The position numbers and the translations under genes were made by a program. From Negaprion brevirostris (lineage: Eukaryota): a DNA stretch of 64,000 bases. The DNA is taken from assembly GCA_030324005.1 (NCBI GenBank), contig JARDVH010000163.1, positions 94,163,061-94,227,060 of the forward strand, written 5' to 3'. The notes under the pieces are model-generated. The model made no database searches. It saw only the letters and a list, made by a program, of their open reading frames with translations, and was not told the origin of the DNA. This document shows positions 28,822-29,314 of this stretch, piece after piece (the stretch's first letter is position 1; each line of letters opens with the position of its first letter).

Positions 28822-29314
28822 AGTAAGTAGTCTCACAACACCAGGTTAAAGTCCAACAGGTTTATTTGGTAGCACGAGCTTTCGGAGTGTTGCCCCTTCA
28901 GCAGGTTGTTTTTTTTTGGAAAGGGAATTTTAGAAAAGCTCCTTGTAGGGGGGAACCTAGATTTTTTTTCTTTTCATTTGGCATATTTAATGGAGAGCCA
29001 GTTTNNNNNNNNNNNNNNNNNNNNNNNNNNNNNNNNNNNNNNNNNNNNNNNNNNNNNNNNNNNNNNNNNNNNNNNNNNNNNNNNNNNNNNNNNNNNNNNN
29101 NNNNAACAGGTTTATTTGGTAGCACGAGCTTTCGGAGTGTTGCCCCTTCGTCAGGTGAGAAACCTTTGGCTAATATCAATTGCACAGGTGAGTCACCTGA
29201 TGAAGGGGCAATGCTCCAAAAGCTTGTGCTACCAAATAAACTTGTTGGACTTTAACCTGGTGCTGTGAGACTACTTATTGTGCCTATCCCAGTCCAACAC
29301 CGGCAATTGCACTT
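28822..29314. mobile_element. Penelope-like inverted terminal-repeat insertion with a 14-bp TSD
   Basis: Arms agtctcacaacaccaggttaaagtccaacaggtttatttggtagcac / gtgctaccaaataaacttgttggactttaacctggtgctgtgagact; TSD catgcattgagttc at 28808-28821 and 29315-29328; contains a 100-N gap. Confidence 0.82.
29123..29157 (-). ncRNA. minimal type I hammerhead ribozyme motif (Penelope-type)
   Basis: Minus strand reads CAC CUGACGA A GGGG CAACA CUCC GAAA GC UC GUG: both core boxes, helix II, palindromic AGCU helix III, CUC cleavage triplet, CAC/GUG helix I. Confidence 0.72.

Follow-up and report, generated by a model that had tools for sequence, protein, structure and literature searches.

The loss of the core nucleotide G12 from the sense member of a head-to-head hammerhead ribozyme pair in a FOXP1 intron is likely the outcome of ordinary CpG decay within what is probably one old fold-back stub, whose two arms are predicted to form a hairpin that traps both hammerheads. 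A first-pass annotation had read the same loss as a possible sign of selection against cleavage of the FOXP1 pre-mRNA, naming CpG decay as its own alternative.

The stretch of DNA analysed as a whole, hereafter the window, is 64 kb long and has a CpG observed/expected ratio of 0.24. FOXP1 lies on its + strand, as indicated by a forkhead exon at 62014-62115 whose best match is FOXP1 (33 of 34 residues, E 1.2e-18), followed by FOXP4 and FOXP2, and which is also matched by Pfam Forkhead; a second, shorter exon piece does not separate FOXP1 from FOXP4. The hammerhead pair is placed between the exon encoding TELQQLW (8791) and the zinc-finger exon (CKWPGC, 31134). Given that FOXP1 is on the + strand and that the pair sits between two of its exons, the plus copy is the sense copy, as the first-pass annotation had proposed in placing the pair in a FOXP1 intron with the plus copy transcribed. 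The two hammerhead strings that it quoted are also present in the sequence exactly, in letters and in position. Its repeat families suggest that the host is probably a shark or ray. A scan for bacterial promoters and terminators returned 0 sites, and bacterial models do not apply to this host.

The minus copy is a minimal type I hammerhead with a helix I of 3 bp, a helix II of 4 bp, an AGCU palindrome without loop 3 and the cleavage triplet CUC, and it would require a dimer partner. It has both of the core boxes (CUGANGA, GAAA) together with a cleavage site of the UH form, while the plus copy fails only at G12, where position 29218 is indeed an A, as had been claimed. The description of the minus copy as intact holds for its catalytic core, which is complete, and does not extend to helix II, whose fifth base pair is gone through a CpG change at 29138. 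In both copies, which are separated by only 36 nt, helix II is preceded by one additional nucleotide, and the G10.1-C11.1 and palindromic 15.2-16.2 pairs are present, as in the published minimal hammerheads (PMC4209133); this agreement supports their earlier identification as hammerheads of the Penelope type.

Using a hand-built descriptor, written after the motif had been seen and consisting of the core boxes, G10.1-C11.1, the palindromic helix III stub and a 3-bp helix I, we recovered the minus copy alone over the window under strict settings and both copies when G12 was left free; 200 dinucleotide shuffles yielded 0 strict matches and 1 G12-free match. A CUGAUGA...AAAA look-alike within a FOXP1 exon (8940-8967) was caught by a loose scan and fails the structural descriptor. 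The covariance-model search that the first-pass annotation had also suggested gave 0 Rfam hammerhead matches at gathering score across the whole window. Even up to E 10, neither copy was matched by a hammerhead model, so that these hammerheads are not filed under any Rfam family. A microRNA reading was rejected, since the matches to mir-2011 and MIR6146 fall far below the gathering score and merely reflect the hairpin.

Truncated Penelope-like insertions combine an inverted pLTR, a tail, a target duplication and a head-to-head palindromic junction (PMC3846280, PMC8557442, PMC11167929), with a tail described as 30-40 bp long (PMC11167929, PMC8557442). The same features are found here, namely an inverted 5'-truncated pLTR copy beside a direct copy, a tail of 34 nt at one end and a target duplication of 14 nt (Table 1), and by every architectural feature that could be tested the locus is likely a truncated Penelope-like insertion carrying a known minimal hammerhead. 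The two hammerheads are thus likely the arms of a single insertion, given the 14-nt duplication, the inverted partial copy and the one-sided 34-nt tail. The true length of the target duplication is 11-14 nt, as the first 3-4 nt of its left copy could also be the end of the tail.

Table 1. Features of the fold-back insertion and of its likely donor site, in window coordinates.
Feature	Position	Strand	Remark
Likely template of the central insert	22877..22904	+	6.3 kb upstream, same intron and orientation
Left target-site duplication, 14 nt	28808..28821	+	100% direct repeat with 29315-29328
Outer (left) inverted arm without tail, hammerhead core A6C	28822..28906	-	91% complementary to 29195-29280
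Near single-copy sequence, 98 nt	28907..29004	.	No clear second window match (best E 0.015)
Assembly gap, 100 N	29005..29104	.	
Inner inverted arm, antisense to FOXP1	29105..29159	-	84% complementary to 29183-29246
Minimal type I hammerhead, intact core	29123..29157	-	Sole strict descriptor match in the window
Fold-back centre	29152..29192	+	25-nt insert between the copies of an 8-nt repeat (29152-29159, 29185-29192)
Direct arm, sense to FOXP1, 5'-truncated at hammerhead start	29193..29280	+	Family homology begins at 29193 (loose ends; alignment)
Minimal hammerhead, G12A (29218) and CpG decays at 29212 and 29225	29194..29228	+	Cleavage triplet now CUU
34-nt tail, confined to the direct arm	29281..29314	+	
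Right target-site duplication	29315..29328	+	Repeat of 28808-28821

At the centre of the fold-back, 29157-29184 matches 22877-22904 at 27 of 28 positions (E 3.7e-7), an alignment that spans the 25-nt insert and 3 nt of the 8-nt repeat and whose upstream partner is unique. The insert was therefore likely copied from 22880-22904 of the same intron, judging by this similarity. At 29167, the sole difference between insert and template, one contig carries the letter of the upstream copy; contigs of a single sequencing run, X2, cover the insert.

Considering these features together, a plausible course of events would begin with the reverse transcriptase of the element primed at the tail and copying about 120 nt, up to the start of the hammerhead. 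The nascent strand would then have folded back and jumped by microhomology to host sequence 6.3 kb upstream, giving the 25-nt insert, before copying returned and produced the mirror arm. The target of the jump may have been nearby host DNA or pre-mRNA during insertion, or else the insert may stem from later end-joining repair at the hairpin tip. The arms would have been identical at the start and would then have aged neutrally.

The family that bears these hammerheads is dispersed and very abundant. Between 49,348 and 94,992 contigs per run were placed on a 1.6-kb stretch in 4/4 runs (4 of the 23 sequencing runs listed), figures that are not a copy number, and the majority rows at loose ends show family sequence in all four. 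Three rows at 28874, among those listed, show an intact G12, and none of the listed rows shows position 29218. No RNA run was listed among the carriers of the sequence, an outcome without bearing on its expression. Apart from X1, a run with 0 differences from the window that may be its source, 3/3 runs have flank contigs that extend across the right junction by 33-45 nt and enter the left junction by 25-26 nt only, below the 31-letter threshold. The insertion is thus shared with all three related runs, and because their flanks diverge by 2.1-2.4% from the window, it probably predates the splits from those runs.

The number of arms is complicated by the 100-N gap, which lies 18 nt from the minus hammerhead and which, like the A6C copy before it, is absent from the first-pass annotation. 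The first 52 nt after it (29105-29156) repeat 28855-28906 at 96% identity, with sole differences at the adjacent positions 28900-28901. The window has five other 100-N gaps, and three of these also show overlaps, there without extra sequence: at 26060, 49255 and 52436, 17-54 nt are duplicated on both sides, which marks overlaps and not missing sequence, and repeats beside such gaps may in general be assembly duplicates. By this comparison, 28855-28906 probably duplicates 29105-29156 through an assembly overlap, and 28822-28854 belongs to the insertion. Reading the gap as an overlap yields symmetric 88-nt arms and a total of 243 bp, or 210 bp once the central insert is left out. We favour the 98 nt at 28907-29004 being the flank of another family copy entered by the assembler over their being captured host DNA; that they are read-end junk was dropped, as contigs in runs X2, X5 and X7 join the left arm to them and extend for about 770-1650 nt.

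Those contigs would also suit a three-armed locus, in which two minus-strand copies surround at least 1.7 kb of captured host DNA next to an inverted tailed copy, as in rotifer Penelope, although they fit a second locus equally well. Two direct pLTRs and one inverted pLTR around captured DNA are already in print (PMC3846280), the 98 extra nucleotides after the overlap are unlike the three clean overlaps elsewhere, and the two minus copies do differ at their two adjacent positions. Against this, no difference separates the minus copies in their first 45 nt, CpG states included, a coincidence with a chance of about 0.006 had they aged apart, and the symmetry of the arms is obtained under the overlap reading. 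A third arm is consequently held to be rather unlikely, and it was dropped as a certainty given the overlaps at other gaps and the 45-nt identity. The functional conclusions hold under both the overlap and the three-arm readings.

Three further fold-back stubs were detected in the window. The one at 6185-6413, only likely intronic, lies some 200 nt upstream of a FOXP1 exon and is again a head-to-head hammerhead pair, from a Penelope-type subfamily that is older and different; both of its cores are decayed, the sense arm having kept G12 and the antisense arm (6211-6311) having lost it in an alignment-dependent reading. The stub at 20956-21053 is a near-perfect 98-nt palindrome of the tail end of the family alone, with tails on both arms and no hammerhead. 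At 39875-40162 there is a related fold-back, opposite in polarity, whose target duplication is 15 nt long and which is young in that its arms are 100% identical over 52 nt. Its sense arm (about 40080) keeps G12, with the first core box inside a 100-N gap, and its antisense arm falls in the gap. A 55-nt AT-rich imperfect palindrome at 33683-33737 has no hammerhead.

The pattern of change between the arms of the FOXP1 stub fits CpG decay well, as the first-pass annotation had allowed. Over the 54 positions of the inner arms there are 6 differences, each of them a transition, and four of the six fall at three ancestral CpGs, so that 4 of 12 CpG site-arms are changed versus 2 of 96 others (Fisher p 0.001); outside CpGs the divergence is about 2% per arm. 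The sense arm has lost all three of its CpGs (29212, 29218 and 29225), two of them outside the essential core, and the antisense arm one (29138). At per-site rates of 0.20-0.33, drawn from this one arm pair, the chance of a sense-only G12A is 0.16-0.22; at the same rates 46% of arms would carry a core change, and 72% of those changes would include G12.

Folding predictions bear on whether a sense hammerhead could have acted at all. As an equilibrium prediction, like all folding figures here, the + strand RNA of 29105-29250 forms a single hairpin of -100.7 kcal/mol (z -18), and the minus strand one of -85.9 kcal/mol. In this context the probabilities of helices I and II are 0.000 for both copies, also with G12 restored, and forcing the hammerhead would cost about 60 kcal/mol. 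When G is restored in silico at 29218, the predicted probability of helix II is 0.87 for the motif on its own but 0.000 in context, and in four growing + strand prefixes with G12 restored it stays at or below 3e-12. The monomer motif lacks helix III. Published data point the same way: a single minimal hammerhead shows no cleavage and dimers show low cleavage (PMC4209133), and the Anolis Poseidon hammerhead does not cleave without the protein of the element (PMC11167929). In a head-to-head stub, a read-through transcript from either strand would meet the antisense arm ahead of the ribozyme, and the FOXP1 pre-mRNA would contain an intronic hairpin of 54-88 bp in place of a ribozyme, whatever the base at position 12. 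Since transcription reaches the antisense arm first, and this arm is predicted to trap the sense hammerhead, there was likely little sense-strand cleavage to select against.

FOXP1 is dosage-sensitive in mammals. The idea that a sense hammerhead could cut the FOXP1 pre-mRNA, with G12A favoured by selection, also draws on the finding that hammerheads with G12A are slower by a factor of 500 to about a million (PMC2553840), on the reduction of host-gene output by an intronic ribozyme in CPEB3 (PMC10919898), and on the depletion of tandem retrozymes from Xenopus introns described in a preprint (bioRxiv 10.64898/2026.07.22.740005), a gene-region test, apparently without strand analysis. At the locus itself, when the four CpG decays are read on the + strand, G12A alone is a G-to-A change, and it also accounts for the sole mismatch of the sense hairpin. 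Other evidence runs the other way. The loss of every sense CpG and the chance of about 0.2 for the observed pattern do not call for selection, and even with G12 restored the ribozyme is not predicted to fold in context. Monomers of such minimal hammerheads are inactive in the published assays cited above, and the nearest same-strand family copy usable as a dimer partner is about 11 kb away.

A comparison of orientations within the window likewise gives no support to selection. Three arms are readable in each orientation, and in each orientation one of the three lacks G12 (1 of 2 antisense arms with the left arm omitted; p 1.0), the sense arm near 40080 having kept it and the antisense arm at 6211-6311 having lost it. 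Fully readable cores are intact in 0 of 2 sense arms, as selection would have it, and in 1 of 3 antisense arms (p 1.0), a difference that neither supports nor excludes the idea. Selection against cleavage is thus a very improbable explanation of G12A, with room left for weak selection because a single arm pair supplies the decay rates and six arms make up the orientation tally. Since G12 sits in a CpG, counts of ribozyme integrity must control for CpG decay, and comparisons of sense and antisense copies must separate the caged arms of fold-backs from solo and tandem copies.

Neither a reverse transcriptase nor a GIY-YIG gene was found for the hammerhead family at the locus, in the window, or through protein, Pfam and atlas searches with a marine metagenome contig (L002), so that the term Penelope-like rests on architecture and hammerhead type. 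That contig is one of 3 metagenome loci recovered with the hammerhead pattern, two of them (L001 and L003) near-identical; all three have G12 and are too few for rates, and they keep helix II with other letters under a search pattern that fixed most positions. The same pattern gave 0 matches in prokaryote or viral contigs, and a pattern for the region downstream of the hammerhead gave 0 in metagenome and viral contigs. In L002, a related hammerhead and downstream sequence (1-500) lie about 210 nt after the end of a frameshifted reading frame, which we take to resemble the C-terminus of Poseidon-type (Penelope-like) proteins. Searches with the reading frame returned the self match only, low atlas scores and no meaningful Pfam match. 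Because the N-terminal part of the called protein matches unrelated proteins, the contig may be chimeric.

In its architecture, the stub resembles the endonuclease-containing Penelope-like elements (Penelope/Poseidon and Neptune), whose insertions also show an inverted 5'-truncated copy head-to-head with a direct copy, a junction palindrome, a tail at one end and a target duplication, and which likewise cause trouble for short-read assembly. Unlike them, it retains no coding sequence, contains a 25-nt junction insert that matches the same intron 6.3 kb upstream and cannot be assigned to a clade. The hammerheads agree with the minimal ones described by Cervera and De la Pena in 2014 (PMC4209133) in their type I core, palindromic 15.2-16.2 pair without loop 3 and short helix I, and differ from the Schistosoma families of that study (helix I of 4-5 bp, helix II of 7-8 bp) in having a helix I of 3 bp and a helix II of 4-5 bp. 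That study already reported pairs of minimal hammerheads that lie on opposite strands at distances of about 100-700 bp, with no cartilaginous fish named in the text consulted. A fold-back of this kind is already in print, and the FOXP1 stub is one of four in the window and one of very many in the genome.

The animal non-LTR retrozymes of the same bioRxiv preprint are similarly non-coding, derived from Penelope-like pLTRs and equipped with a type I hammerhead, and are reported in one chondrichthyan. They are head-to-tail tandems of at least two units, each with a complete hammerhead, which gives same-strand dimer partners; at the FOXP1 locus the copies form a single inverted pair that would give an antisense trap, and no two complete same-strand copies were found. 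Conserved intronic ribozymes, such as the HDV-like ribozyme of CPEB3 (PMC10919898) and the amniote intronic hammerheads (PMC6765202), are also ribozyme motifs in introns of regulatory genes, but they are conserved sense-strand motifs, self-cleaving in the case of CPEB3, whereas the FOXP1 pair is a decayed copy of a mass repeat with its intact core on the antisense strand. In the open-access literature, we found no paper on shark Penelope hammerhead fold-backs, on a sense/antisense bias of such ribozymes or on a G·U strand bias.

Strict neutrality does not predict one further feature of the arms. When the transition differences between arms are read on the sense strand as G·U or A·C pairs, 17 of 22 are G·U across the four fold-backs, an excess of 17:5 made up of 6:2 in 28822-29279, 10:3 in 6211-6413, 1:0 in 20956-21053 and 0:0 in the 39.9-kb element. 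Six distant inverted repeat pairs in the window, one of which includes an arm of this hammerhead family, served as controls and gave 139:134 (139 of 273; Fisher p 0.025), in a test that is post hoc and small. Strand-biased decay that keeps the hairpin on the transcribed strand could account for the excess and for the greater predicted stability of the sense hairpin, and its proposed causes are selection for a caged ribozyme or for intronic double-stranded RNA, or hairpin-templated repair of the displaced DNA strand. We regard such a bias as improbable, given that this element alone contributes 6 of 8 (p 0.14) and another no differences, that a single old element, with adjacent changes in its alignment, supplies 13 of the 22 sites, and that the control set includes a family arm.

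Were the bias to hold genome-wide, it would imply a host-strand force on intronic hairpins made by retroelements, and fold-back stubs would suit a test of it because their arms start identical. A broader and similarly doubtful proposal is that head-to-head Penelope stubs are self-caging, the mirror arm silencing the ribozyme in read-through RNA and so allowing intronic build-up, with the host strand preserving the cage. If so, long shark-like introns such as those of FOXP1 would fill with maintained double-stranded RNA hairpins. In the inner sense hairpin, the single mismatch places A29218 opposite C29133, and A·C mismatches are a site type favoured by A-to-I editing.
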